The notes: a model not told the origin generated them from the sequence alone. A stretch of 12,178 bases of DNA from an uncultured Deinococcales bacterium (GCA_964247135.1 CAXTTL010000146.1:1-12178), one strand, 5' to 3'; shown: positions 1 through 12,178, counted from the first letter of the stretch. Program-made: numbers and translations.

Positions 1-537
1 TTAACCGTAGAATTTTTTCCGTGGGGTGCGATCAAAATGCTCAGTCAAGACAAGACCCGTGAAAGTGTTGCCAACATTGAGTTCGATCCAGGTTTTCAAA
101 AACTCAGTCTGGCGCTCGAGCATCTCTTAAAAACGGGGCAACTTTCCCAAGCCGTAGAAATATTGGACGACTGGTTGATTCGTCGGTTTGGATTGGTCGC
201 GCCAGACATCACCCCTGCGATTTTTGCGGCTAGAGATATTATTGAAACCAAAGGGCAAACCAAAATTGAAACCCTCGCAGAAACCGTCGGTTTGAGCCGC
301 AGGCAACTCGAGCGTGGTTTCGGGCAAGATATTGGTTTCACACCCAAATTGCTATCGCGCCTGATTCGGTTTGAAGCGGCAACGCAGGAGCTTCAAAAAA
401 GCGAAACCCCGGATCTTTCACAGATTGCTTTTGAACTTGGGTTTTACGACCAATCGCATTTGACAAAAGAATTTCAAGTGTTTGGGCAGATCACACCGCT
501 GGCATTTTCAAAGCAGCGAATGGGTCCAGAAGGATAA
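1..537 (+). CDS. AraC-family transcriptional regulator, C-terminal part (5' truncated by window)
   Basis: Frame is open from base 1 (LTVEFFPWGAIKM...), so the true start is upstream. AraC double-HTH motifs are present: IETLAETVGLSRRQLERGF...IGFTPK and LSQIAFELGFYDQSHLTKEF. Confidence 0.9.
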   Translation, partial: LTVEFFPWGAIKMLSQDKTRESVANIEFDPGFQKLSLALEHLLKTGQLSQAVEILDDWLIRRFGLVAPDITPAIFAARDIIETKGQTKIETLAETVGLSRRQLERGFGQDIGFTPKLLSRLIRFEAATQELQKSETPDLSQIAFELGFYDQSHLTKEFQVFGQITPLAFSKQRMGPEG

Positions 538-551
538 ATAAAAAGTTTGTA

Positions 552-589
552 GCTCGAGAGAAACCACTGAACTGTGCCTTTTCTCGAGC
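552..589. repeat. Inverted repeat/hairpin built from two CTCGAG sites between araC and uraH
   Basis: GCTCGAGAGAA ... TTTTCTCGAGC with inner CAC/GTG pairing. No clear U-tract follows on +, so a terminator role is uncertain. Confidence 0.5.
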
Positions 590-603
590 CGCGACCTGCG
601 TTC

Positions 604-621
604 AAACCGTAAACTGGTTTC
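604..621 (+). promoter_or_regulatory. Leaderless-type -10 box (TAAACT) for uraH, inside an AAACC/GGTTT inverted repeat
   Basis: TAAACT at 610-615 lies 6 nt before ATG 622 and there is no Shine-Dalgarno. It is flanked by AAACC (604-608) and GGTTT (616-620). Confidence 0.65.
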
Positions 622-945
622 ATGGGTAAACTCACCACGCACGTTTTGGACACTTCCAGGGGCAAACCTGCTTCAAACCTCGAGATCAGGCTTTTTGATG
701 CAAGTCATGAACTCTTAAAAACCATTCGCACGAATGCCGACGGACGGGCTGATGCACCGTTGCTCGAGGGTGAAAGTTTGAAAACAGGAATGTACACGCT
801 CGAGTTTGAGGTGGGCGCGTATTTTGGAAGCGCGGACTTTTTAGGCGTTGTGCCGGTGCAATTTAGGGTTTCGGACGCGAACGCGCATTACCATGTGCCG
901 CTGCTGGTTTCGCCTTATGGTTACAGCACCTACAGGGGGAGCTGA
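622..945 (+). CDS. uraH: 5-hydroxyisourate hydrolase (transthyretin-like), cytoplasmic type
   Basis: Signature N-terminal [11 protein letters not shown] and C-terminal [18 protein letters not shown]. 107 aa, no signal peptide. Confidence 0.97.
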
Positions 946-2255
946 TGAGCCTCGAGAGCGTTTCAAGCGCAAACATCCTGGCATTGTCACAGCAAGCGCT
1001 CGAGCGTTGCGATGTGCTGGCATTGCACACCGAAGAACCTGGCAAGATCACGCGCACGTTCTTGTCCAAACCCGCGCGTGACGTGCAAGCCAAACTCGAG
1101 GCTTGGATGAAAGAGGCGGGTCTGTCAACTCGGGTGGACGCGGTTGGGAATGTGATTGGGCGGCTCGAGGGGAGTTCTCCAAGCGCCAAAACGTTGTTGA
1201 TCGGTTCGCACATTGACACCGTGCCAAATGCTGGGCGTTACGACGGCATTCTCGGCGTGATGCTGGGCATTGGGGCAGCAAAGGCGCTCGAGGGTCAAAA
1301 ACTGCCGTTCGCGCTCGAGGTGATCGCTTTTTCCGAAGAGGAAGGCGTGCGCTTTAACGTGCCGTTCATCGGTTCTAAGGCGGTGGTGGGTACGGTTGAC
1401 CGTACCTTGCTCGAGAAAACCGATGCTTTGGGAACCAGTGTCGCCCAGGCGATCATCGATTACGGCTTGAACCCAAATGACATTCCCAGCGCCGCCCACA
1501 AGCCCTCAGAACTGCTTGGTTACTTTGAGGTTCACATCGAGCAAGGTCCGATCCTCGAGAGCCGTCAAGCGCCCCTAGGACTCGTGGAAGCGATTGTTGG
1601 GCAGACGCGGGTCAACCTCGAGTTTCGGGGGCAAGCCGCGCACGCGGGGACAACCCCAATGAATTTGCGCAAAGACGCGCTGGTGGTCGCCGCCACGCTG
1701 GTGCTCGAGGCGGAGCGAATGGCGAGAACCATTCCTGGACTGGTCGCCACCGTCGGCACGCTCGAGGTCGAGAACGGCGCAGGAAATATTGTGCCAGGTC
1801 GGGTTCGCGCCAGCCTTGATGTCCGCCACAGCGATGATGCCACCCGAGAACGCGCCGTGGCGGATTTGCTCGATTTCACCTGGCACACGGGTCAAAAACG
1901 CAAGGTCAACTTGGAGCATCAGATCAAACTCGAGCAACGCGCCGTGCCGATGGATGGTTTATTAACCGAATTTCTTGCCGATGCGCTCGAGGATTGCGGT
2001 TTTAAAAACAAATCAAATATGCCCACGCTTCAAACCAGCCTCGAGAAAGTCGCCAGCGTTCACCGCCTGACCTCTGGGGCGGGACACGACGCCATGATTC
2101 TGGCGGGGTTGACTAAAGCCACCATGCTGTTTATCCGTTCGCCGCGCGGGTTGAGCCATCACCCAGACGAAGCCGTGATCCCAAACGATGTCAAAGCGGC
2201 GTTGACCGTGGTGCTCGAATTTTTGAGGAAGCTGACGCGCTGGCAAGCCAATTAA
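945..2255 (+). CDS. allC: Allantoate amidohydrolase / M20-family metal-dependent amidohydrolase
   Basis: Motifs GSHIDT, GRYDG, FSEEEG, EVHIEQGP, AHAGTTPM, SGAGHDA and SHHPDE. The TGATG overlap with uraH supports a purine-catabolic role; the exact substrate is inferred from context. Confidence 0.85.
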   Translation: MSLESVSSANILALSQQALERCDVLALHTEEPGKITRTFLSKPARDVQAKLEAWMKEAGLSTRVDAVGNVIGRLEGSSPSAKTLLIGSHIDTVPNAGRYDGILGVMLGIGAAKALEGQKLPFALEVIAFSEEEGVRFNVPFIGSKAVVGTVDRTLLEKTDALGTSVAQAIIDYGLNPNDIPSAAHKPSELLGYFEVHIEQGPILESRQAPLGLVEAIVGQTRVNLEFRGQAAHAGTTPMNLRKDALVVAATLVLEAERMARTIPGLVATVGTLEVENGAGNIVPGRVRASLDVRHSDDATRERAVADLLDFTWHTGQKRKVNLEHQIKLEQRAVPMDGLLTEFLADALEDCGFKNKSNMPTLQTSLEKVASVHRLTSGAGHDAMILAGLTKATMLFIRSPRGLSHHPDEAVIPNDVKAALTVVLEFLRKLTRWQAN

Positions 2256-2280
2256 AATCGGGGTCAGACGCTCGAGCCGT

Positions 2281-2763
2281 TCATTGCGATTGATTCTCGA
2301 TTGGTTCAGGTGTTTTTTCAAAAAGTCCTGGAACCCAAATGCCCAACAAACGCCGAATCCCCAATCGCAAACCCAGCACCCTGCCCAACATGATGCCCGC
2401 GCTGATGGCAAGCCCAACGGCGGCGACCTCGGAGGCATTTTGCACCCAAAGCCCAATCAGACGACTGCAAAGCAGCGAAAAAACAATATACGCCAGCAGA
2501 ATGATCGCGCCAATCCAGTCGATCCTCGAGACGACGGCACGGTTGTCTTCGTGCCAGGACAGTTTGTACATTCGGCTCAGCACCATGCCAATCACCACAC
2601 CCGTCAGCACCGCAAGAACTGCAATAACAAGCGGCAATCGCTTGTCAATCACGTCATACACGATGACACCCAACATGATGAGGGCAATGACCGAAAAAAT
2701 TCGCAATTGCGTTTTGAGTTTATTGTCAATATGAGGCAAGATTGCATCGCGTCGTGATTTCAT
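2281..2763 (-). CDS. Hypothetical integral membrane protein (about 4 TM helices)
   Basis: 160 aa with four long hydrophobic segments. A perfect TATAAT lies just upstream of the ATG. Confidence 0.8.
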   Translation of the reverse strand: MKSRRDAILPHIDNKLKTQLRIFSVIALIMLGVIVYDVIDKRLPLVIAVLAVLTGVVIGMVLSRMYKLSWHEDNRAVVSRIDWIGAIILLAYIVFSLLCSRLIGLWVQNASEVAAVGLAISAGIMLGRVLGLRLGIRRLLGIWVPGLFEKTPEPIENQSQ

Positions 2764-2768
2764 GAGGC

Positions 2769-2774
2769 ATTATA
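2769..2774 (-). promoter_or_regulatory. Consensus -10 box TATAAT, leaderless promoter
   Basis: Minus strand reads TATAAT-gcctc-ATG with no Shine-Dalgarno. Confidence 0.65.
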
Positions 2775-2828
2775 GGCAGTTCGCTCGAGCTTGATGGTAT
2801 CGGTTTTTGGATGCTCGTGCCGTGTTTT

Positions 2829-2865
2829 TTGAGGCGGCTGCCAGGTTGATTGAGGCGTCTGCAAG
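2829..2865. repeat. Tandem imperfect 16-bp direct repeat with 21-bp period
   Basis: TTGAGGCGGCTGCCAG (2829-2844) and TTGAGGCGTCTGCAAG (2850-2865), 14/16 identical. Confidence 0.6.
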
Positions 2866-2913
2866 AAAATTAAAACAAAAGAATTAAAACGTTAAGGCAA
2901 TCAAGAACAATGG

Positions 2914-2953
2914 AATAAAACAAGCTCGAGTCTGAAAAGAGTCTCGAGCTTGT
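2914..2953 (-). terminator. Rho-independent terminator of trxB
   Basis: Stem ACAAGCTCGAG (2920-2930) / CTCGAGCTTGT (2943-2953), followed on the minus strand by TTTTATT, about 35 nt past the trxB stop. Confidence 0.75.
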
Positions 2954-2986
2954 CCCAAAAACTTCAACTGGATTTTTGTATCAAAA

Positions 2987-3955
2987 TCAATCGGCTGCCA
3001 CCGCCACACCCGAGCTTGGTTGGACTAGCGCATGGTGATCCTCGAGGTCGGCGATGTACTTTTCGGCTTTCATGGCGGCTTTTGTACCAGCCCCAACGCT
3101 GGTGGACAACTGGCGGTAAATTTCGTCGCTGACATCGCCGGCGCTGTAAATGCCCTCTAAACTGGTGTAAATTTCGTCTTTGACCGCCACATAACCGTGG
3201 TTGTTCAACTCGAGCGTGCCCGCCAAAAAGCCGGTGTTCGGTTCGTGACCCACGTAAATAAACACGCCGTCGGTTGGCATGGTGCTGACCACACCAGTCT
3301 CGAGGTTTTTGACTTTGACGCCGGTCACGACGTCTTCGCCCAGCACCTCTTCGATCACGGTGTTCCAAACAAATTTCATTTTGGGATTCCTGAATGCACG
3401 GTCTTGCGCAACTTTATTGGCACGCAATTCCGTGCGGCGATGAACCACGGTCACAGTGTCGGCAAATTTGGTTAAAAACGTGCCCTCTTCGATGGCGGCA
3501 TCGCCACCGCCAACCACGATCACATGCTTGCCACGGTAGAAAAAACCGTCGCAGGTGGCACAGGTGCTGACGCCGCGCCCGTAAAACTTGTCCTCGCCTG
3601 GGACATTCAGGCGCTTTGGGTTCGCGCCCGTGGCAATGATCACGACTTTGGTGGTATAGGTTTTGTCGTAACCCTTTATGCTAAAACCGCCAGCAATTTT
3701 CTCGAGCGACATGACCTCATCAAAAACAATTTTTGCCCCGAATTTCTCGGCTTGCTGCACCATGCGGCTCGAGAGTTCGGGACCGGAGATCACGTCTGGA
3801 AAACCAGGGTAATTTTCGACCTCGTCGGTTTGTGCAATCTGCCCGCCAGGGTTGCCCTTCTCGAGGATGATGGTGTTTAAACTGCCGCGCCCGGCGTAAA
3901 TGCCTGCGGTCAAGCCTGCGGGTCCACCGCCAATGATTAAAACGTCGTATTCCAT
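2987..3955 (-). CDS. trxB: Thioredoxin-disulfide reductase
   Basis: FAD motif [11 protein letters not shown], active site [13 protein letters not shown] motif [12 protein letters not shown], and GDV. A GGAGG RBS lies 7 nt upstream. Confidence 0.97.
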
Positions 3956-4145
3956 TTCATTTCCTCCAAAGGTCGTACATCCTCAACAATCCAAAATACC
4001 AGTTTTCCTGGTGAGATGCAGTATTGAAAACCACTCGAGGTACGCAATCTCGAGCCTCAAAGTTCGATTCGCTCGAGTGAAAGCGATCTTCAACCTCCCG
4101 ACTCGGGAACTTTTTATTCTGAGCGGCACTCCAAGACAACAGAAC

Positions 4146-4165
4146 GATCTCGAGCGCTCGAGATC
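4146..4165. repeat. Perfect 20-bp palindrome made of two CTCGAG sites
   Basis: GATCTCGAGCGCTCGAGATC is its own reverse complement and lies in the divergent trxB/lipoprotein promoter region. Confidence 0.9.
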
Positions 4166-4257
4166 AATCGTCAAAAAATGATTCCAACGAACTGCTTTCA
4201 CCATCGACTCGAGTGGGTTGATGTGGCTCGAAATGGTCAATCAGGAGAACCTTTATC

Positions 4258-5475
4258 ATGCGAATTCAATTTTCGGTTGTTCTTATCAGCTCCGCCCTCA
4301 GCCTCGCCTCATGCTCGAGCAACACAGCCTTTCCGAGCACCTACACGCTCAACCCAGCCAGCAACAGCAATCAAATTGCAGCCTCTGGCTCGAGCGTCAA
4401 TGTCGCCGTGCAACTGGTCGATGTCGGTGGCGCTGGCGTGGGGAATATCAAATTGTCCGCGCTCGCCGATGTTCGCTATTGCACGGTCAGTCCAGCCGGT
4501 GCGACCACCGATGCCAGCGGCAACGCCTCGTTTAGCGTTACGGCACTCGGTATCACTGGCGTCAATTGCACCACTGGAATCACCGTGGTCGGGGCGAGCA
4601 CCTCACGTGCCACCGTCAACTTTGCGACCTTTATTCGCCCCGCCCAACGCGGACTGAGCGTTCCCGCCACGGTTGCCCTTCCAAACGGCGCTGCAACTGT
4701 GACCGATGCGGGGGCTGCCGCCTCGAGCATCAGTCTCTCGAGCATCGCCAATTTGCCAGCACCAGATTCCAACCATACTTACGGCGTCTATTTGGCAAAG
4801 CAAGACCTCAACGGCAACGTGACTGGGCAAACCTTGCTGGGCAAAACGGCGGTGCTTCCACCGCTGGCGGCTTTTGTTGGTCCAGTCAACCTTGCAAGTG
4901 GTGGTTACAACGTGCTCGAAGTGGCTTTGCAATCGGTGGGTGCGGGCAAGTTGGATGTCACCAATTCTGCCAGTTTGATCGGCAATTTCACGCCAGTCGC
5001 CGCCGGTACCGCCAATGTGACGCTTGGGGTCAATGCCGACGGTTTGCGGGTGACAACGCCTTTCAGCCTGCCCAGCGGCGCCAGCGCACAGATGACGCTG
5101 AGCAATCCCAACCTCAACCTTGGCGTGGCTGGTGACGGCATCAGTTTGGCTTGGTCTGGATTGCCACAAAATCCAGGTGGTTATTCGTATCTTGTCTACG
5201 CCACAGACGGCGCTGCCCTCACCTCACGCTTGGGTGCATTTACCTCAAACGGACGCAGTGGAACGTTTAAGTTTGAAAGCCAAGCCCCCGCCAACGGTGC
5301 AATTCCGAGCGGCATCACAGACCTAAAAACCAAATTTGATCGTGTCTTTGTGACCCTCGAGCCAACCAGCGCAGGCGATGGTGGCACAGCCAGCGGCACG
5401 CCTGGGACTTTGGTGGTGCTTGACAACGCCTCGAATGCTTGGACGTTTGCGACCACAAGCAGCGCTGAGCGTTAA
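4258..5475 (+). CDS. Predicted surface lipoprotein: Ig-like (Big_1-like) domain plus two RskA/anti-sigma-K C-terminal-like repeats
   Basis: AGGAG RBS. Signal peptide with lipobox LASC (Cys19). Ig-like motif ATTDASGNASFSVTA. Repeats LPAP...TYGVYL...LLG...LEVALQ and LPQN...SYLVYA...RLGAF...VFVTLEP. A/S/G/T/N-rich. Domain calls are by eye. Confidence 0.75.
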   Translation: MRIQFSVVLISSALSLASCSSNTAFPSTYTLNPASNSNQIAASGSSVNVAVQLVDVGGAGVGNIKLSALADVRYCTVSPAGATTDASGNASFSVTALGITGVNCTTGITVVGASTSRATVNFATFIRPAQRGLSVPATVALPNGAATVTDAGAAASSISLSSIANLPAPDSNHTYGVYLAKQDLNGNVTGQTLLGKTAVLPPLAAFVGPVNLASGGYNVLEVALQSVGAGKLDVTNSASLIGNFTPVAAGTANVTLGVNADGLRVTTPFSLPSGASAQMTLSNPNLNLGVAGDGISLAWSGLPQNPGGYSYLVYATDGAALTSRLGAFTSNGRSGTFKFESQAPANGAIPSGITDLKTKFDRVFVTLEPTSAGDGGTASGTPGTLVVLDNASNAWTFATTSSAER

Positions 5476-5504
5476 ATTTCTCGGGTTTTCAAACGCGTGA
5501 ATCG

Positions 5505-5544
5505 CAATGTTGGGAAAGTCGCTTGACTTTCCCAACATTGTCTT
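5505..5544 (+). terminator. Long perfect hairpin, probable terminator of the lipoprotein gene
   Basis: CAATGTTGGGAAAGTC-GCTT-GACTTTCCCAACATTG (16-bp perfect stem) 30 nt after the stop. Only a weak U-tract (TCTT) follows. Confidence 0.7.
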
Positions 5545-5663
5545 GCCCAAAAGCTGTGACTCGGGTTTCAAACACAGCTCTTGCACCACAGGCTCAAGCC
5601 GCAATCCAAATGAGAAACGCTTAAGATTGAGAGAAATGACCACCAGGACCCAAAAACTGCCTG

Positions 5664-5696
5664 TATACTTAACCAAGGTTGAGATTTACCGGAGGT
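5664..5696 (+). promoter_or_regulatory. -10 box and RBS for the 126-aa gene
   Basis: TATACT at 5664-5669, and GGAGGT at 5691-5696, 4 nt before ATG 5701. Confidence 0.6.
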
Positions 5697-5700
5697 AAGA

Positions 5701-6081
5701 ATGGGTTCAAAAACCGTAACACCTGTACTGGTCACTGAAACTTCGCTCGGAGAACTCGAGTTTTCGGCGCAAGAGGCGGTCGAACTTGCCGAAAACTTTA
5801 ACAAGCTGCCCATTTTGCAACAGGTCATTCGTTTTATGCGTGCCGTGGCAAGCGCCGGTCAAACCGAAGGCATCATGCCAATCGATGCCAAATGGGACAA
5901 GCACATTCAAGAGGTGGTCGAATGCGTTTTGTTCAGCCGTGGTTTTGAAGTCATCTGGAAACGCAAATTCATGGAATTCAGGATCAAACCGAGTTTGCGC
6001 AGGTCAATCAAACAGCAGATCAACGAACAATTTATTCCCGAGGTTCGCAATCCCACCATGCAAATCCCGTATCAGGCTTAA
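5701..6081 (+). CDS. Hypothetical protein (126 aa)
   Basis: Strong RBS and -10 box, fills the gap between two hairpins, and has globular alpha/beta-like composition. No family recognised. Confidence 0.75.
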   Translation: MGSKTVTPVLVTETSLGELEFSAQEAVELAENFNKLPILQQVIRFMRAVASAGQTEGIMPIDAKWDKHIQEVVECVLFSRGFEVIWKRKFMEFRIKPSLRRSIKQQINEQFIPEVRNPTMQIPYQA

Positions 6082-6093
6082 AGTTTTACCGCC

Positions 6094-6109
6094 AATGCTC
6101 GAGAGCATT
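6094..6109. terminator. Small hairpin between convergent genes (possible bidirectional terminator)
   Basis: AATGCT-CGAG-AGCATT, flanked by GTTTT and AAAAC. Confidence 0.45.
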
Positions 6110-6120
6110 CAAAACCATTT

Positions 6121-6717
6121 TTAGACCCGATCCCACCAGACAAAAACCACTCCAGGCTCGGGTTTTTCAGTGAACGTCCCAAACTTTTTGACCAACCACC
6201 CGAGTTGCCTTTTCACAAATTCGTGGTTGGTGTCGTAAAATCCCAAAATCATCCGTCCACCGCCCCGAGCCGCCGCAAACGCATTCTCGGCATAAGTTTG
6301 GTAAAGTGACCCGTTAAAATCCAGTCCGTCCCAGACGTTCCAGTAGACGTAATCAAAAGATTCTGGAAGTCCAAGTTCAACTCGGTCTGAAAGTCTCTCG
6401 AGCGAAAGTTGCGCAAAATGACTGGCGTATTCCGGCAGCAATGCCCGAGCCGTCTCGAGGCTGGCGGCGTCAATGTCAACACCGTATGGCGTGATCTGAT
6501 GCTCGCTCCAAAGTTGCAAACACGCCAGCAAAAATCCGTTGGCGCAACCAATGTCCAAAAGCGTCCCAGGCTTTTCAATGGCGCCGCAAATTGGTTTACG
6601 GTTTTTGACCCAATACTCGAGCAATTCCTCGATATTGCCACCACTGACGTGGCTGCCCTCGAGCAAGCTTTTGACGTTTGGGAAGGCGTTCAGTAATTCT
6701 TGCGCTTCGGGTTTCAT
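6121..6717 (-). CDS. Class I SAM-dependent methyltransferase
   Basis: Motif I LLDIGCANG, motif II YGVDID, then FDYVY and GGRMILG. The ATG overlaps the MerR stop (TGATG). Confidence 0.88.
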   Translation of the reverse strand: MKPEAQELLNAFPNVKSLLEGSHVSGGNIEELLEYWVKNRKPICGAIEKPGTLLDIGCANGFLLACLQLWSEHQITPYGVDIDAASLETARALLPEYASHFAQLSLERLSDRVELGLPESFDYVYWNVWDGLDFNGSLYQTYAENAFAAARGGGRMILGFYDTNHEFVKRQLGWLVKKFGTFTEKPEPGVVFVWWDRV

Positions 6718-7394
6718 CAGGCTGCCTTGGCGATTTTTTGTTCAAACTCGAGCGCTCGGGCGATACGTTGTTCAAGCTCGAGTTTTTTCTGCTCGAGTTT
6801 TTCGCGGGCGGCGCGGTATTCGCTCAAAAGTTCCTGCACCAAATTGCGGCGTTCTCGCTCAAGTTCGGGAGGATCAATCCAATGTTCGGATTCGTCAAGT
6901 CCGCTGGTGGTCGTCCAAAAACTGACGCGCTCAGAAATACGTTCGCCGTCAACCGTGCGCCCAACAAAGCCAATGCTGTGATCGATATCACTTTGCTGGC
7001 GCGGCTCGAGAAATCCTTTGAACAAAATCCCTTGGGCTTGACCTGCCTGTTTTCGGGCAACAATTTGCTCGAGACTCAAACCCAGATCAATCCATTGCCG
7101 TACCGATTCGGTCTGGGCGACGTTCACCACATGAAAACGGTATCTTGTGCCGACCAGCCACGGTTCGATCAAACCAAGCCGCACATAATGGCGCACGGTC
7201 GAAATCGGTAAATTCACCATTTTGCTGAACGCGCCAATCCCAACGCCTTTGGTGTCCATAAAGGCTCGAGCGTTGACTTGGGTGCCTGCCAGAAGCGTGA
7301 ACATACCGCGCATTTCGGGATCGTTTTCAAAATAATGGGCGTACTTTTGGGTTTGTTTGCGAAAACGCTCGGGACTGAGTTTGACCAAATCCAT
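6717..7394 (-). CDS. MerR-family transcriptional regulator with N-terminal extension (start re-assigned to ATG at 7394)
   Basis: MerR HTH IGAFSKMVNLPISTVRHYVRLGLIEP...RYRF...LGLSLEQI and a C-terminal coiled coil. An AGGAGG RBS precedes ATG 7394, and the ORF-track GTG at 7439 lies within the promoter spacer. Confidence 0.88.
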   Translation of the reverse strand: MDLVKLSPERFRKQTQKYAHYFENDPEMRGMFTLLAGTQVNARAFMDTKGVGIGAFSKMVNLPISTVRHYVRLGLIEPWLVGTRYRFHVVNVAQTESVRQWIDLGLSLEQIVARKQAGQAQGILFKGFLEPRQQSDIDHSIGFVGRTVDGERISERVSFWTTTSGLDESEHWIDPPELERERRNLVQELLSEYRAAREKLEQKKLELEQRIARALEFEQKIAKAA

Positions 7395-7418
7395 GATGAC
7401 CTCCTGTGCTCGGGTTCT

Positions 7419-7449
7419 ATCATGGAATGTGAAGTTCACTTCATGTCAA
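7419..7449 (-). promoter_or_regulatory. MerR-type promoter with 19-bp spacer and palindromic operator
   Basis: Minus strand reads TTGACA (7449-7444), 19 bp, CATGAT (7424-7419). The spacer contains the dyad TGAAGT-GA-ACTTCA (7430-7443). Confidence 0.8.
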
Positions 7450-7453
7450 GTCT

Positions 7454-8347
7454 TCAACCTTCAGGGACACCAGAACTCGGCTCGCTGCTCGAGCTGGCAA
7501 TGCTCACCGGTGAAATGTCTTTGGGCACATTCAGGTTCATTTGCGGCATCGGAATGCGCAAACCTGCGGCGTCAAAGGCGTTTTTGATGCGTTTTTTGAA
7601 CTCTCGAGAAAGTCCCCATTGCTCTTTGGGTTGAACCTTCATGACGGTGCGAATCGTCACGCCCACCGCCCCGAGGGCTTGCACGCCGAGCACTTCGGGG
7701 GCTTCGAGAAATTTTGGGGTCCAAATTGGGTCATCGTGCAAACTTTGGGCGACGCCACCGATCAACTCGAGGGCGGTATCGAGTTTCAGGTCGTGCGGAA
7801 CGTCAATATCGGCGACAACCCGCGCCCAATCTTTGGAGAGCACGCTGACGGTCAAGATTTGCCCGTTTGGAATGATGTGCGCCGTTCCCTCGAGGTCACG
7901 CAAAACGGTCACGCGCAAGTTGAGGTGCTCGACGCTGCCAGCCAAACCGCCCGCGCCATTGACCCGCACCACATCACCAACGCCGTATTGATCCTCCAAG
8001 AGCACAAAAAAACCGGTGATGACATCTCTGACCAGGCTTTGCGCCCCGAACGAAACCGCCAAGCCCAGAATCGAGACCCCTGCCAGCAGCGCGGTGACGT
8101 TGATGCCAATTTCGGACAAGATCGCGGCGAGTGCCGAGAGCAAAATCAGCAGGCGCAAACTCGAGGCGACCACCGAGCGCAAAGTTTGAACGCGCACGTT
8201 GTGGCGGCTAAATTCCGTGCCGATTGAGACTCGAGCCGCAACAAACTTGACCAGCCACAACGCCAAGATGGTGACCAGCAAGGTAATGACCAAACTTGGG
8301 GCAGCCTCGAGCAAACTGGCGAGCAACTTTTGCAAACGTGCCAACAC
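7454..8347 (-). CDS. mscS: Small-conductance mechanosensitive channel family protein (start re-assigned to GTG at 8347)
   Basis: MscS motifs LLAGVSILGLAVSFGAQSLVRDVITGFF, EDQYGVGDVV, G.VE..NLRVT.LR..EG...IIPNG. The GTG lies 1 nt after the plsX stop; the longer ORF-track start would overlap plsX by about 95 nt. Confidence 0.9.
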   Translation of the reverse strand: MLARLQKLLASLLEAAPSLVITLLVTILALWLVKFVAARVSIGTEFSRHNVRVQTLRSVVASSLRLLILLSALAAILSEIGINVTALLAGVSILGLAVSFGAQSLVRDVITGFFVLLEDQYGVGDVVRVNGAGGLAGSVEHLNLRVTVLRDLEGTAHIIPNGQILTVSVLSKDWARVVADIDVPHDLKLDTALELIGGVAQSLHDDPIWTPKFLEAPEVLGVQALGAVGVTIRTVMKVQPKEQWGLSREFKKRIKNAFDAAGLRIPMPQMNLNVPKDISPVSIASSSSEPSSGVPEG

Positions 8348-8348
8348 G

Positions 8349-9377
8349 TTAAACCGTTTCGGGTTTCTCGAGTTTTTGTGCCAGCACCTCGAGTTTGATC
8401 GCGGTTTTCTCGAGCAAATTCGCTTCGACCGCCCTTGCCGCAAAACTTATGGCGCTGTAAACAGCTTTGGCGTCGCTCGAGCCGTGACCGATGAAGACCA
8501 GACCTTTCACGCCCAAGAGTGGCTGTGCGCCGTACTCGGCTGGGTCGAGCTTGGCTGCCACGCCGCGCAGGGCTGGACGCACCAGCGCCGCGCCAAGTTT
8601 GGTCAGCCAGTTGCCGCCAGACAGCGCCTCGCGCACCCAGCCGAACAAGACTTTGGCTTCGCTCTCGGCGGCTTTTAAAACCACATTGCCGGTAAAACCG
8701 TCGGTCACGACCACATCGACCGTTCCCTTAAAAATATCACGCCCTTCGACGTTGCCAAAAAAGTTTAACCCTGGCGTAGATTTTAAGAGATCGAACGTCT
8801 CGAGCACGAGTTGATTGCCCTTGCCTTCCTCTTCGCCGATGGACAGCAATCCAACGCTGGGGTCGGTTTTGCCAAACATCGCGCTCGAGTACGCCGCACC
8901 CATGAGGGCAAAACCCTGCATGAACGAGGCTCGAGCGTCCGCATTCGCGCCGACGTCCACCAGGGTCACGCGACCTGTGGCGTTTGGGAAGTTCGCCACG
9001 ATGGCAGGGCGCTCCACGCCAGGCAAGCGCCCCAAACCGAACAAGGCACTGACCAGCGTCGCGCCCGTATGTCCCTGCGCCACGACGGCGCTGACTTTTT
9101 TCTGGCGCAACAAATTGATGGCGACATTGATCGACAGGTTTTTATTTTTGCGCGTGTCGGTGGCGTGGTCGTCCATGCCAATCACGTCCGAGGCGTGAAC
9201 CACCCCGATCAAACCGCTGGGTTCAAATTTCTCGAGTTCGCGCCTGACCTCGGTTTCACGCCCGACCAACGTCACCGGAATGCCCTCTTTGGCGGCACGC
9301 ACCGCCCCTTCGACCATTGCCGCAGGTGCAAAATCGCCACCCATCGCGTCGAGCGCAATTGGAAGGCTTAACGCCAC
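8349..9377 (-). CDS. plsX: Phosphate acyltransferase PlsX
   Basis: IALDAMGGDFAP, GVERPAI, DVGANAD, LLSIGEEEGKGN, FFGNVEGRDIF, VVVTDGFTGNVVLK, YGAQPLLG and IGHGSS. Confidence 0.97.
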   Translation of the reverse strand: MALSLPIALDAMGGDFAPAAMVEGAVRAAKEGIPVTLVGRETEVRRELEKFEPSGLIGVVHASDVIGMDDHATDTRKNKNLSINVAINLLRQKKVSAVVAQGHTGATLVSALFGLGRLPGVERPAIVANFPNATGRVTLVDVGANADARASFMQGFALMGAAYSSAMFGKTDPSVGLLSIGEEEGKGNQLVLETFDLLKSTPGLNFFGNVEGRDIFKGTVDVVVTDGFTGNVVLKAAESEAKVLFGWVREALSGGNWLTKLGAALVRPALRGVAAKLDPAEYGAQPLLGVKGLVFIGHGSSDAKAVYSAISFAARAVEANLLEKTAIKLEVLAQKLEKPETV

Positions 9378-9419
9378 AGCAGACCTCGAGCTTGTTGAAG
9401 ATCGAATTTCATTGGCTCG

Positions 9420-9425
9420 AGTTTA
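9420..9425 (-). promoter_or_regulatory. Candidate -10 box TAAACT upstream of plsX
   Basis: Minus strand reads ggTAAACTcgagccaATG, 7 nt before an out-of-frame ATG at 9412. Confidence 0.45.
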
Positions 9426-9491
9426 CCTTAGAACTCAGGGTTTCTCGAGCTTCAAAGCTTGACGCTGGCTCAGATTGAATTTGTGGCGGTA

Positions 9492-9737
9492 TCACTCGAG
9501 GTCAAATTTTTGTTTGATCTCCTGAACCAGCGCCTCAGCGCCAGAGATTTCCCCTTCATACCAGTTCGTCCATTCAAAGCAGAGTTTCAAGCCAGCTTTC
9601 TCGAGGTCAACCCGTCCGTAATCGATCCAGGCGTCAACGCCGTTATAAACAAAAACCGCCCGCCAACCCGCCTCGAGATAGACATCCAAAATGCGGTTGA
9701 AAGTTTCGGTTTTAATGTCTTTGAGGCTCAATTCCAC
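9492..9737 (-). CDS. Small hypothetical protein (81 aa; start re-assigned to GTG at 9737, probably leaderless)
   Basis: Minus strand reads TAAGCT-tgctt-GTG. The product MELSLKDIKTETFNRILDVYLEAGW...DAWIDYGRVDLEK...FEWTNWYEGEISG looks globular, whereas the upstream 28 codons do not. Confidence 0.7.
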   Translation of the reverse strand: MELSLKDIKTETFNRILDVYLEAGWRAVFVYNGVDAWIDYGRVDLEKAGLKLCFEWTNWYEGEISGAEALVQEIKQKFDLE

Positions 9738-9832
9738 AAGCAAGCTTACAAAATAAAATCGGAATTTGACCGCGAGAACCTGTATCAAAACGCTATGATT
9801 CCAATGGCGAAAGTGGCTCACGCCTCGAAATT

Positions 9833-11644
9833 ATGGTCAACGGCATCAATGCTCAAAAATCTTTTCTTCACTCGCGGTTCGTGACATTGCTGATCGTGCT
9901 GATGGCACTTTGTGCTTGCAGCCCTCAAAAACCCGAGGTTCAACCAAAAGTGATTCAAGGCGTGCTGGACTTGCGCAACTGGGATTTCTCGACAGACGGT
10001 TCGGTCAAACTCGATGGCGATTGGGAATTTTACTGGGACAAATCCATGCGTTCGCTCGAGCCTGAAGCCAAAGCACAAGAGTTTATTCGCGTGCCTGGGG
10101 CATGGCTCGAGAATCACCATCCCGCAATCGGCAAAGCCGTGTATCGGCTGCACATTTTGACCAGCGCGGCAAGTCAGGTGTTGGGCATCAAGTTATACGA
10201 ATTTCCACAAAGTTACAGGTTGTACGTCAACAACCATTTCCTGATCGAAAATGGCAAGTATTCCGAGACTCCAGGACGCAACAACCGTTCTTTGATGCGT
10301 CCATTTGTGGTCTTTGCCACCTCGAGTTCCACCATTGACCTCTCGATTGAAGTGGTCAATGGTCTGAGCACCGAAGAACCAGGTCCAAGGCGTTCGATTG
10401 TTCTTGGTTTGGAACCAAATGTCCGTCAAGTTCAAGATGGACAATTGATTTCTGACATGCTGACCACGGGCGTTCTGGTCATCATGGCGGCGTATCATCT
10501 TGGCTTGTACCTGCAACGCCGCCGCGAGACGGGCAGTCTGTTGTTTGGCTTGCTGTGTCTGATCATGATTTTTAGGATTGCCGTCACCGAAGAGCATTAC
10601 CTGCAAAAGTTCATCCCCAGCTTTCCAGGCAACCTCGAGCATTTCTTTGACGTGTTCTCTTTCTTTATTTTGGTTCCCGCCTTTGCTTGGATTTTTCAGA
10701 ATTTTTTTGAAAAAGACTTTGACAAACGCATTTTGAAGCTTATTTTTGGCGCGTTTGTAGTGATTGGTGGTTTGTACTTTTTAACTGCCATCGAAATCTT
10801 CTTCGACGCTTACCTTGTCTTTACCTTGCTGGTCGGGCTTTACCTGACCTATGTGCTCTTGCTGGGGGTTCAGCGTCGGCGTTTGGGGGCATGGGTTTTC
10901 TTGGCTGGTTTCCTGATTTTTCTGGCAACCGGTATTTGGGACATTCTTTCCTTCAGCAACATTGTTCGCGCCATTTACGTGTCGCAAATTGGTTTTGTCT
11001 GCTTTATCTTCTCGCAAGCCTACGTGCTCTCGATGCGTTTTAACCAAGCCCTGCACATGTCCGAAGAACTGACGGTCAACCTCGAGGGACTGGTCAAAGA
11101 ACGCACCCAGGCGCTCGAGGAATCAAACCGAAAACTGAGCGTTTTGAACGTGACCGATGCGCTGACCGGCATTGCCAACCGACGGCATTTTGATGAGGTG
11201 TTGCAGCTCGAATGGAACAGGGCATTGCGCGATCACACGCCGCTGGCGCTGCTCATCCTCGATATCGACCATTTCAAGGCGTACAACGATTTTTACGGAC
11301 ATCTTGGCGGGGACGCCTGTTTAAAAACCGTGGCTGACGTGCTGTCCACCCATGTCCGGCGAGCCGGCGATACCTTTGCTCGCTACGGCGGCGAAGAATT
11401 CGTGATCATGCTCGCCAAATGCAGCACCCAAGAGGCACTCGAGCTTGCCGAGCAGCTACGCCAAGCCGTTGAGACACGCGCCATACCGCATCAGAAATCA
11501 AACATCGGACACGTGTCGATCAGCATTGGCGTGACCAGCCTGATTCCAAACCAGACCACTTCAGCCGATCAGTTGGTCAAGATTGCCGATCAAGCCTTGT
11601 ACCGTGCCAAAGATTTGGGCAGAAACCAAACGGCAAGCGCTTAA
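9833..11644 (+). CDS. Membrane-bound diguanylate cyclase: extracellular beta-sandwich sensor + 7TM-DISM + GGDEF
   Basis: Signal/lipobox-like N-terminus, GVLDLRNWDF...LDGDWEFYW sensor motif, about 7 TM helices starting near YHLGLY, and a coiled coil. Then DALTGIANRR, LDIDHFKAYNDFYGHLGGDACL, RAGD I-site, ARYGGEEF and ADQALYRAK. Confidence 0.93.
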   Translation: MVNGINAQKSFLHSRFVTLLIVLMALCACSPQKPEVQPKVIQGVLDLRNWDFSTDGSVKLDGDWEFYWDKSMRSLEPEAKAQEFIRVPGAWLENHHPAIGKAVYRLHILTSAASQVLGIKLYEFPQSYRLYVNNHFLIENGKYSETPGRNNRSLMRPFVVFATSSSTIDLSIEVVNGLSTEEPGPRRSIVLGLEPNVRQVQDGQLISDMLTTGVLVIMAAYHLGLYLQRRRETGSLLFGLLCLIMIFRIAVTEEHYLQKFIPSFPGNLEHFFDVFSFFILVPAFAWIFQNFFEKDFDKRILKLIFGAFVVIGGLYFLTAIEIFFDAYLVFTLLVGLYLTYVLLLGVQRRRLGAWVFLAGFLIFLATGIWDILSFSNIVRAIYVSQIGFVCFIFSQAYVLSMRFNQALHMSEELTVNLEGLVKERTQALEESNRKLSVLNVTDALTGIANRRHFDEVLQLEWNRALRDHTPLALLILDIDHFKAYNDFYGHLGGDACLKTVADVLSTHVRRAGDTFARYGGEEFVIMLAKCSTQEALELAEQLRQAVETRAIPHQKSNIGHVSISIGVTSLIPNQTTSADQLVKIADQALYRAKDLGRNQTASA

Positions 11645-11673
11645 GTCTCTCGGGTTTGACCAAAACGCTCGAG

Positions 11674-12178
11674 CTAAACCTTTAAACCGCAAACCGTAAT
11701 GATGCTCGAGCTTGCGTCGGTCAGCGGCTCTTTGTTCCAGTTTCCGTATTGTCGAATGACGCTCAAACCATTTGCAGTTAAGAGTTTGTTCAAATTTTCA
11801 GCAGATGTAAACTTGCAATCGATTCTGGTCGTGCCAGTCAATTCTCGAGTGCCAACCAAACGGCGGAATGTCGTCCAGTGCAAGACTTGCGTTTGCGGGT
11901 CGTACTCTTGAATTCCCGAAACTTGAACCTCTTGCCCATCAATATTGCTGTACGCAAACCAATCTTCCTCGAGCAAGTTCGTCTCGAGGTCATGCCCGCT
12001 CGGGTTGCGGGTTTCAAAGGCGAATACACCGCCCGGTGCGAGGTGAAGTTTGATCGAGCCGAGCAATTTGTCTTGATCTTTGCGGGTCAAAAACATTTGA
12101 AACGCATTGCCAGTCATGAATGCAAATTGAAACTGTTGTCCAAGACTAAAATCTCGAGCGTCGGCGTGAACAAATTCA
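11674..12178 (-). CDS. Class I SAM-dependent methyltransferase, C-terminal part (5' truncated by window)
   Basis: Frame is open to the window edge: EFVHADARDFSLGQQFQFAFMTGNAFQ...HLAPGGVFAFETRNP, typical post-motif-II methyltransferase elements. Confidence 0.85.
   Translation of the reverse strand, partial: EFVHADARDFSLGQQFQFAFMTGNAFQMFLTRKDQDKLLGSIKLHLAPGGVFAFETRNPSGHDLETNLLEEDWFAYSNIDGQEVQVSGIQEYDPQTQVLHWTTFRRLVGTRELTGTTRIDCKFTSAENLNKLLTANGLSVIRQYGNWNKEPLTDASSSIITVCGLKV

Follow-up and report, generated by a model that had tools for sequence, protein, structure and literature searches.

The DNA analysed here is a 12,178-nt contig of an uncultured Deinococcales bacterium (GenBank:CAXTTL010000146.1, bp 1–12178; assembly GCA_964247135.1), called the window throughout, and the element under study is the palindrome CTCGAG, of which the window contains 89 exact copies, the first at bp 115 and the last at bp 12153–12158. 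Genes were called by our own procedure based on open reading frames, which in the window reproduced the Pfam-supported genes, and their content was ordinary and of the housekeeping kind, with an M20-family peptidase gene (bp 945–2252, plus strand; PF01546 and PF07687), a thioredoxin-reductase-like gene (bp 2990–3955, minus strand; PF07992), an MscS-type channel gene (bp 7457–8347, minus strand; PF00924), plsX (bp 8352–9377, minus strand; PF02504), and genes for a GGDEF protein and for MerR and AraC regulators. Each of the 14 called genes carried at least one CTCGAG (range 1–14); the M20 peptidase gene was the densest with 14 copies, nearly all of them read as Leu-Glu codon pairs, and plsX, the MscS-type gene and the thioredoxin-reductase-like gene contained 8, 7 and 6 copies, respectively. 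The whole set (bp 115–12158, no strand being assigned) was divided into 71 copies in genes, which make up 10,974 bp (one every 155 bp), and 18 copies in the 1,204 bp between them (one every 67 bp), and the coding copies were distributed over the frames as 54 CTC GAG, 12 xxC TCG AGx and 5 xCT CGA Gxx. Dinucleotide-preserving shuffles of the window (n = 200) gave a mean of 2.31 copies (standard deviation 1.52, maximum 8), and none of them reached 89. A preliminary description of this DNA had counted about 89 copies by hand between the same first and last positions, with one or more in every gene and about 17 in roughly 1.2 kb of intergenic DNA (about 1 per 70 bp, versus about 1 per 150 bp in coding DNA), and the exact figures agree with it closely; its examples of sites read as x-Ser-Ser (bp 4314, 4389, 4722 and 4737) and as Ala-Arg (bp 8230 and 8930) were correct, and its remark that no responsible gene is visible in the window is in line with the housekeeping functions found by Pfam.

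Six of the intergenic copies form a cluster of 180 bp (bp 4034–4213, no strand) between the divergent genes at bp 2990–3955 (minus strand) and bp 4258–5472 (plus strand), where CTCGGG, CTCGAA and similar one-mismatch variants were seen, by direct reading, to adjoin the sites. Three copies lie within 65 bp upstream of plsX (bp 9385–9449), and another three between the genes at bp 2284–2763 and bp 2990–3955 (bp 2784–2948), likewise without strand. The genes at bp 4258–5472 (plus strand, 405 aa) and bp 2284–2763 (minus strand, 160 aa) had no Pfam match at E ≤ 0.001, and the sites of the 405-aa gene were mostly read as x-Ser-Ser. A 36-bp inverted repeat (AATGTTGGGAAAGTC...GACTTTCCCAACATT, bp 5505–5540), located 30 bp past the stop codon of the 405-aa gene, resembles a terminator hairpin. 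At its end, the window shares 29 identical bases (bp 12150–12178) with the start of another contig of the same assembly (G000:C68:1–29), probably an assembly-graph overlap that would join the two contigs.

The source assembly (G000; 386 contigs, 5,091,702 bp, GC 52.65%, 84% complete) contained 33,925 copies of CTCGAG, that is 1 per 150 bp, which cover roughly 4% of the genome and correspond to 24.7 times the zero-order expectation. It was by far the commonest hexamer, the only near rivals being words that overlap it, and each of its 18 one-mismatch variants was present in 96 to 2,216 copies. None of the 386 contigs was without the word, so that the enrichment is not confined to the contig of the window, and in the 297 contigs of more than 5 kb the density ranged from 2.6 to 10.5 per kb (median 6.8). 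A maximum-order Markov model returned an observed/expected ratio (O/E) of 1.24; with an iterated word this model tells nothing, since its sub-words, CTCGA and TCGAG, are supplied by the motif itself. The flanks carried a weak preference for G at −1 and C at +1 (0.38–0.39 each), and the commonest 12-mer occurred 109 times, which indicates a bare word rather than a piece of some longer repeat or of a mobile element; a longer motif was ruled out on these same frequencies. Half-sites at other spacings, CTC-N(1–8)-GAG, were ordinary once CTCGAG had been masked. Two public DNA runs (X1 and X2, with small shares of 0.10 and 0.08) provided scattered contigs of 151–226 nt that aligned to the window with 0–5 differences, none of those listed lying inside a CTCGAG; no RNA run was among the runs listed.

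In the intergenic DNA of G000 (GC 46%), 4,242–4,397 copies were found versus 109–118 expected under zero-order or first-order Markov models, an enrichment of 37-fold; the second-order expectation, 332, is inflated because of the motif itself. The cores of long spacers alone contained 1,384 copies versus 44–104 expected. For coding DNA, 10 within-gene synonymous shuffles, each preserving every protein and the codon counts of every gene, gave 4,110 ± 65 copies, whereas 29,563 were observed (7.2-fold). All three frames contributed to the excess: CTC GAG with 18,428 copies versus 3,208 shuffled (5.7-fold; 62% of the coding sites), xCT CGA Gxx with 4,392 versus 314 (14-fold), and xxC TCG AGx with 6,743 versus 588 (11.5-fold). 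The choice among synonymous codons was strongly dependent on context, with CTC making up 24.6% of Leu codons overall and 91.8% of those before GAG, and GAG making up 45.6% of Glu codons overall and 93.6% of those after CTC. Leu-Glu pairs were written CTCGAG in 18,428 of 24,009 cases, or 76.8% (77%) as against 11.2% predicted from context-free codon usage; the corresponding figures were 42.5% versus 2.0% for [TPAS]-Arg-[VADEG] and 48.4% versus 3.7% for x-Ser-[Ser/Arg]. Leu-Glu was also the most over-represented dipeptide of the proteome (O/E 2.34), whereas Glu-Leu was not (O/E 1.01). Since the word is in excess in all frames and between genes, codon bias cannot explain it, as the preliminary description had held; nor did the enrichment vanish under protein-preserving shuffles or outside genes, an outcome that would have counted against it.

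The nearest named relatives of the PlsX protein were a Thermaceae metagenome-assembled genome (57% identity), Deinococcus murrayi (56%) and a Trueperaceae metagenome-assembled genome (56%), which fits the earlier guess of a member of the Deinococcota. The family of the window consists of 19 genomes of uncultured Deinococcota including G000, in five genera and 57–94% complete, one of which (G011) is a single contig of 5.1 Mb. Expressed per kb of rounded genome size, the density of CTCGAG was 4.3–6.8 in all 18 other members of the family, 0.01–0.27 in the 36 genomes of family f3, 0.6–1.1 in the 22 genomes of genus g9, 1.4–3.0 in genus g13, 3.4 and 3.1 in single genomes of g22 and g24, 0.3–2.6 in family f2 and 0.7–2.9 in family f4. 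Seven genomes of five families were then sampled at 48–373 kb each for enrichment over synonymous shuffles and for the O/E of Leu-Glu, and these were, respectively, 0.1-fold and 0.96 in the Deinococcus-like sample of f3, 0.9-fold and 1.18 in the Thermus-like sample of g9, 2.0-fold and 1.40 in an f4 genome (G015) with a real XhoI restriction-modification (R-M) system, 2.9-fold and 1.43 in f2, 3.4-fold and 1.69 in g13, and, within the family of the window, 5.5-fold and 2.03 in genus g3 and 6.9-fold and 2.34 in genus g1. The labels Deinococcus-like and Thermus-like are inferred, GC content and PlsX matches being among their basis, and the related genomes of this graded series are non-independent samples. 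Leu-Glu climbs in step with CTCGAG; the trait is highest in the family of the window and weaker in three sister families, while the Thermus-like sample is neutral and the Deinococcus-like genomes are depleted. This profile across the order, and the hexamer ratios computed genome-wide above, are among the kinds of check that had been proposed when the motif was first noted, and they support an enrichment of the genome and of the lineage; an artefact of assembly or library is contradicted by the enrichment of the 18 other genomes and by the agreement of the X1 and X2 contigs with the sites of the window.

In a codon alignment of 15 plsX orthologs, members of the family had 4–8 CTCGAG and five outgroups 0–1, and at the positions of Leu-Glu in the family the outgroups often had Leu-Ala, Leu-Gly, Leu-Arg, Val-Glu, Val-Ala or Ile-Gly. 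Codon alignments of four genes of the window revealed sites mostly common within the genus and partly between genera. For the M20 peptidase gene, a site matrix of five genomes showed most sites retained in the four same-genus genomes and a few gained or lost, and in the thioredoxin-reductase-like gene the sites were kept within the genus and partly common between genera.

For the turnover of sites, 373 kb of a same-genus genome (G005) were compared with G000, of which 254 kb aligned at 85.7% identity. CTCGAG was retained as CTCGAG in 64–89% of cases, depending on frame and direction, versus 45–47% for hexamers in general within that frame class, and in intergenic DNA in 75–82% versus 45%. Relative to a baseline built from non-motif columns of these alignments with matching base and codon position, losses of the word occurred at 0.24–0.36 times the expected rate, and one-mismatch neighbours were aligned to CTCGAG at 3.9–5.1 times the baseline, or 9.8–11.1 times in intergenic DNA. 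Both effects were found at all three symmetric position pairs and for transitions and transversions alike, the ratio for C>T at the CpG cytosine being 0.29 versus 0.32 at position 1. Gain excess divided by loss deficit came to 26–41 in intergenic DNA, near the 37-fold enrichment observed there. With gains sped and losses slowed for the whole word, CTCGAG behaves as under a fixation bias; at the DNA level it is favoured against mutation and protein constraint. The bias would be either weak selection at each site or a drive by biased transmission or gene conversion; its strength, when scaled, would be about ln(25–37), or 3.2–3.6.

Along genes the density of CTCGAG was nearly flat, at 6–7 per kb. 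Immediately behind stop codons there was a modest peak of 14 per kb over the first 20 bp, with 25 per kb in the initial 3-bp bin, and the highest density among spacers, 11.7 per kb, was that of the shortest, 12–50 bp long. Spacing was more even than random, with distances below 20 bp at 0.25–0.55 times expectation, those of 50–200 bp at about 1.2 times and those of 400–800 bp at 0.73 times; a distance of 6 never occurs because GAGCTC would then arise. Among intergenic copies, distances of 13–25 bp were not depleted, and no helical periodicity of 10–11 bp was seen. Genes of at least 900 nt without the word numbered 14 of 2,051 in G000 versus 1.3 expected. Pfam was run on 10 of these 14, which encode three solute-binding proteins, an ABC permease, a Wzy-like ligase, a reverse transcriptase-trypsin fusion, an AAA_16 protein, a protein weakly like helix-turn-helix regulators and two unknowns. 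Motif-poor 2-kb windows had lower GC and more of the words otherwise avoided (0.79 versus 0.12 per window); they look like recent arrivals awaiting remodelling and, like the genes poor in the word, belong to accessory or atypical DNA. The fusion gene (G000:C4:51606–53231, L192), which joins a reverse transcriptase to a trypsin-like protease in 542 aa, has no CTCGAG in 1.6 kb and looks like a recently acquired reverse transcriptase of defence type.

A further peculiarity of G000 concerns the words that it lacks. GAGCTC was absent from its 5.09 Mb (and from the window), although Glu-Leu is a normal dipeptide, and was nearly absent (0–25 copies) from most genomes of the family; GGCC had 380 copies (O/E 0.016), words of the types GRGCYC and RGATCY had 0–25 each, and 28 of the 64 hexamer palindromes were below an O/E of 0.1. 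In the background composition, AAAA/TTTT, CAAA/TTTG and AAAC/GTTT were enriched 2.3- to 3.1-fold and the TA dinucleotide was at 0.39, which is unusual at 52.6% GC. Avoidance of GAGCTC as the cause of the excess of CTCGAG was ruled out because genome G116, with a normal count of 51 GAGCTC per 100 kb, is still enriched 3.4-fold; genome G008 likewise has 568 GAGCTC alongside 21,883 CTCGAG. A scan of viral contigs for dense CTCGAG (three sites within 100 bp) gave at least 120 matches, and none of those listed resembled G000 by blastn. The listed contigs were mostly of GC 58–70%, seven had weak tblastx matches, and many carried GAGCTC about equally often, which points to a codon effect.

The earlier suggestion had been that a motif-maintenance system is present, for instance an orphan methyltransferase of XhoI, PaeR7I or TaqI type coupled to repair, with an uptake signal, a recombination site or a nucleoid-protein site as further candidates. 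XhoI-family endonucleases (PF04555) were found in none of the 19 genomes of the family; in the order they were present in 6 of 151 genomes, namely in 5 of the 23 of sister family f4 and as one broken copy in f2, with none in f3 and f5. At the two f4 loci inspected, L204 (G015:C1:73699–77256) and L205, the endonuclease gene is accompanied by a convergent gene, overlapping by about 60 bp, for a 340-aa beta-class methylase (PF01555), and the two methylases are 78.5% identical. No ortholog of this methylase was found in the 19 family genomes, the best match in G000 being 25% over 276 aa and those elsewhere in the family at most 33% over 238 aa, or 43–47% over 70–90 aa. On both counts CTCGAG fails as an XhoI-type R-M target in these genomes. 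Vsr (PF03852) had no match in G000, an assembly that is 84% complete.

G000 contains about 12 genes for DNA methyltransferases, which belong to the usual families. Six of them were tested by protein search, five against one genome from each of five genera and the one on contig C169 against every other member of the family (18 genomes); L081, L083, a 1,499-aa protein on contig C112 and two MmeI-like proteins stood outside this search, and MT-A70, EcoRI-methylase and TaqI_C outside the family scans. None of the six was conserved across the five genera. Three had best matches of 30–39%, which are paralogs; a 466-aa N6_N4-like protein was found only in G005, where it is broken; the Dam-like methylase was present in two of the five genomes searched; and the HsdM-like methyltransferase on C169 was patchy (14 of 18). 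The G005 copy of the 466-aa protein (G005:C76:182942–184300, L109), 89% identical, contains two in-frame stops (TGA and TAG) and is likely a pseudogene. The Dam-like methylase (G000:C320:2155–2985, L094) was 84% identical to the copy in another genus (G011:C1:1609687–1610514) versus 76% to that in the same genus (G005:C63:76350–77168) and was missing from three other genera, which suggests that it moved horizontally within the family. In scans of the 19 genomes, Eco57I and N6_N4 matches were patchy, the latter family (PF01555) having no member in the single-contig G011 nor in G043, and the weak Eco57I matches of about 500 aa were diverse HsdM-type subunits, most pairs being 22–32% and a few 41–91% identical. 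These negatives of orthology apply to genomes 57–94% complete and to enzymes whose specificities are unreadable from sequence. ComEC (PF03772) was present in 18 of the 19 family genomes; it is non-discriminating, as 10 of 14 control genomes, including Thermus thermophilus and Deinococcus radiodurans, carry it too. The two halves of the suggestion fared differently. The enrichment is real and genome- and lineage-wide, and the motif is actively maintained, with sites conserved far above background and neighbours converting above baseline, whereas the orphan methyltransferase with repair found no support in the endonuclease, Vsr and methylase searches, in the distribution of the six genes tested, or in a substitution pattern that is not that of T:G patch repair.

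Among known systems, the closest likeness is to HIP1 (GCGATCGC), the highly iterated palindrome (HIP) of cyanobacteria: both are short, hyper-abundant palindromes that extend over a lineage, lie in and between genes above the codon-corrected expectation, are positionally conserved between genomes, and vary in intensity among related lineages. The word itself is neither GCGATCGC nor a derivative of its CGATCG core, which has only 47 copies in G000 (O/E 0.03), and it is 6 bp instead of 8 bp long, in a different phylum. In Elhai 2015 (PMC4390886), which deals with cyanobacteria only, HIP1 is given as 300–2,700 per Mb with an O/E of 55–228, compared with 4,300–6,800 per Mb and about 25 for CTCGAG, and a 6-nt alternative palindrome, GGCGCC, is described for Calothrix PCC 7103. 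Further differences are that no conserved cognate methyltransferase was found for CTCGAG among those tested, and that CTCGAG leaves a measurable dipeptide imprint; HIP1 proper is also marked by a chromosomal periodicity of 10–90 kb and by orphan methyltransferases cognate to its word or core. At about 1 per 150 bp and 4% of the genome, it is the densest such palindrome that we found described; a full-text literature search, to which the supplementary tables of the HIP1 papers (possibly listing non-cyanobacteria) did not belong, returned no report of its over-representation.

Other systems resemble CTCGAG in fewer respects. The uptake signal sequences (USS) of Pasteurellaceae and the DNA uptake sequences (DUS) of Neisseriaceae are also dense, lineage-specific words with evener spacing and a cost to coding, explicable by molecular drive, and ComEC in 18 of 19 genomes would be in keeping with them. 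USS and DUS occur at about 1 per kb and are 9–12 nt long and non-palindromic. CTCGAG is exactly 6 bp and palindromic, its flanks carry little information, and competent Thermus- and Deinococcus-like relatives are not enriched; in form it departs from the uptake sequence of the textbooks. XhoI and PaeR7I share the target CTCGAG, and sister family f4 has the endonuclease with its adjacent methylase, but R-M targets are normally avoided while CTCGAG is 25-fold enriched, and the family has no ortholog of either enzyme in any of its 19 genomes. Dam GATC and Dcm/Vsr are likewise short palindromes with an abundance shaped by a methylase or by repair, and their known effects on abundance are a few-fold at most. 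CTCGAG does not behave as a Vsr-driven word: PF03852 had no match in G000 (84% complete), and the bias extends to all positions and change types, beyond the one mismatch type of Dcm/Vsr.

We consider, with a probability of roughly 0.7, that CTCGAG is a HIP-type highly iterated palindrome, a new word in a new phylum, whose fixation is biased through a protein that reads the hexamer. The features of a HIP in the broad sense were all found, namely an O/E of 24.7 genome-wide and 7.2 after codon correction, presence in coding and noncoding DNA, extension over the lineage, and conserved sites, the last taken from one species pair. The symmetry of the hexamer implies a dimeric protein that would read the whole double-stranded CTCGAG, and the bias so produced would raise gains and lower losses of the word at all six positions. 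More tentatively, and at well below even odds, the likeliest role of CTCGAG would be to tag DNA as self during uptake or homologous recombination; such a tag would spread by molecular drive, as is thought for uptake sequences, and methylation by a conserved enzyme would be unnecessary. This role would parallel the current proposal for HIP1, for which a recent paper (PMC13756078) proposes a function in uptake and finds methylases not significant in a phylogenetic screen.

Several points weigh against this reading. No protein that reads CTCGAG was identified, and the role in uptake or recombination is an inference. The comparison of gains and losses is unpolarised, comes from one species pair, assumes stationarity and uses our own crude gene calls, while the aligned intergenic DNA is biased to conserved stretches; the present data do not distinguish selection from drive. 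Thermus and Deinococcus are naturally competent, and ComEC is found in T. thermophilus and D. radiodurans, yet the Thermus-like sample and the Deinococcus-like relatives are without enrichment, so that competence alone fails to predict the trait. Known uptake sequences are 9–12 nt long and non-palindromic, and a word of 6 bp gives little discrimination. There may also be a methyltransferase of an unsearched family or in unassembled parts of the genomes, or non-orthologous enzymes of common specificity.

This last point leads to the first of the two rivals that remain serious, a HIP- or Dam-like system in which an orphan methyltransferase marks every CTCGAG for strand discrimination in repair, replication timing, regulation or transformation and selection keeps the sites. 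HIP1 and GATC are its classical precedents, methyltransferase genes are numerous in the family (about 12 in G000), and a true XhoI-type pair exists in a sister family, where G015 is mildly enriched (2.0-fold). The effect of HIP1 on transformation is reported as methylation-dependent, and a 2026 preprint on hot-spring epigenomes (bioRxiv 10.64898/2026.06.24.734251) has CTCGAG among the motifs methylated in Fimbriimonadia and in a 'Group 2' of unstated phylum. Nevertheless, none of the six G000 genes tested has orthologs in all five genera, PF01555 is absent from G011 and G043, the weak Eco57I matches are a diverse assortment (22–91%, mostly 22–32% identity), all 19 genomes are without an ortholog of the XhoI-linked methylase, and the lack of excess C>T at the CpG cytosine (0.29 versus 0.32) argues against unrepaired 5-methylcytosine there; we regard this explanation as unlikely. 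Somewhat less likely again is a site for a nucleoid-associated or chromosome-organising protein, each copy giving a small benefit to compaction or domains, as has been proposed for HIP1. A symmetric hexamer suits a dimeric binder, the near-uniform distribution along genes and the evener spacing agree with it, the deficit below about 20 bp would fit a footprint, and sites are conserved within and between genes, as Xu et al. 2018 (PMC5861425) argued for HIP1 in reading site conservation as selection. Against it, intergenic distances of 13–25 bp are not depleted, the 10–11 bp periodicity is missing and no candidate protein was found.

The remaining explanations dispense with a benefit. Repair of the very short patch (VSP) type, or a context bias of the polymerase, could create CTCGAG by mutation only; in Escherichia coli, VSP repair is credited with a shift in the abundance of oligonucleotides, and the conversion of one-mismatch neighbours above baseline is what such a process would give. 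A bias that only creates the word would not suppress its losses 3- to 4-fold, however, and the positional conservation of the sites, the action at all three position pairs with both change types rather than in one T:G context, and the lack of a Vsr match in G000 (84% complete) make a purely mutational origin very improbable. That codon usage, dipeptide preference or codon-pair bias yields the word as a by-product, or that it is an artefact of assembly or library, has practically no probability left. CTC and GAG are indeed common codons, their frame holds 62% of the coding sites, and in the Thermus-like sample the count equals the codon-shuffle expectation (0.9-fold). However, this explanation is already refuted by the 37-fold intergenic and 11- to 14-fold off-frame enrichment; CTC before GAG and GAG after CTC are chosen strongly by context, the reverse word GAGCTC occurs 0 times with a normal Glu-Leu, the trait is common to 19 independent assemblies, and the independent X1 and X2 contigs show no listed difference within sites of the window.

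For three decades HIP1 has been a puzzle, and nearly all work on it has been done in cyanobacteria. An independent case, with another word, in another phylum, with no conserved methylase found and with a natural dose series over related families, would permit comparative tests of function. It also shows how far a force acting on DNA can bend a proteome, with Leu-Glu raised 2.3-fold and outgroup residues replaced by Leu-Glu. In these genomes, composition-based binning, gene finding and the detection of horizontal transfer will be affected, the density of CTCGAG marks native versus foreign DNA, and XhoI would cut DNA of the G000 type to fragments of about 150 bp unless it is modified. It is possible, though we hold it with considerable doubt, that the HIP was invented independently a second time outside cyanobacteria, in the form of a protein that reads unmethylated CTCGAG, drives the word into every available position and uses it as a self-DNA tag for uptake, recombination or gene conversion with no dedicated methyltransferase; as part of the same tentative proposal, the drive may prevail over the choice of synonymous codons in half to three quarters of the contexts compatible with the word, and rewrite proteins toward Leu-Glu. 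If this is true, the series from avoided through neutral and 2- to 3-fold to 7-fold would make the strength of the drive an evolvable quantitative trait, and the sister family with a weaker form and genomes of cultured size would make it experimentally accessible.

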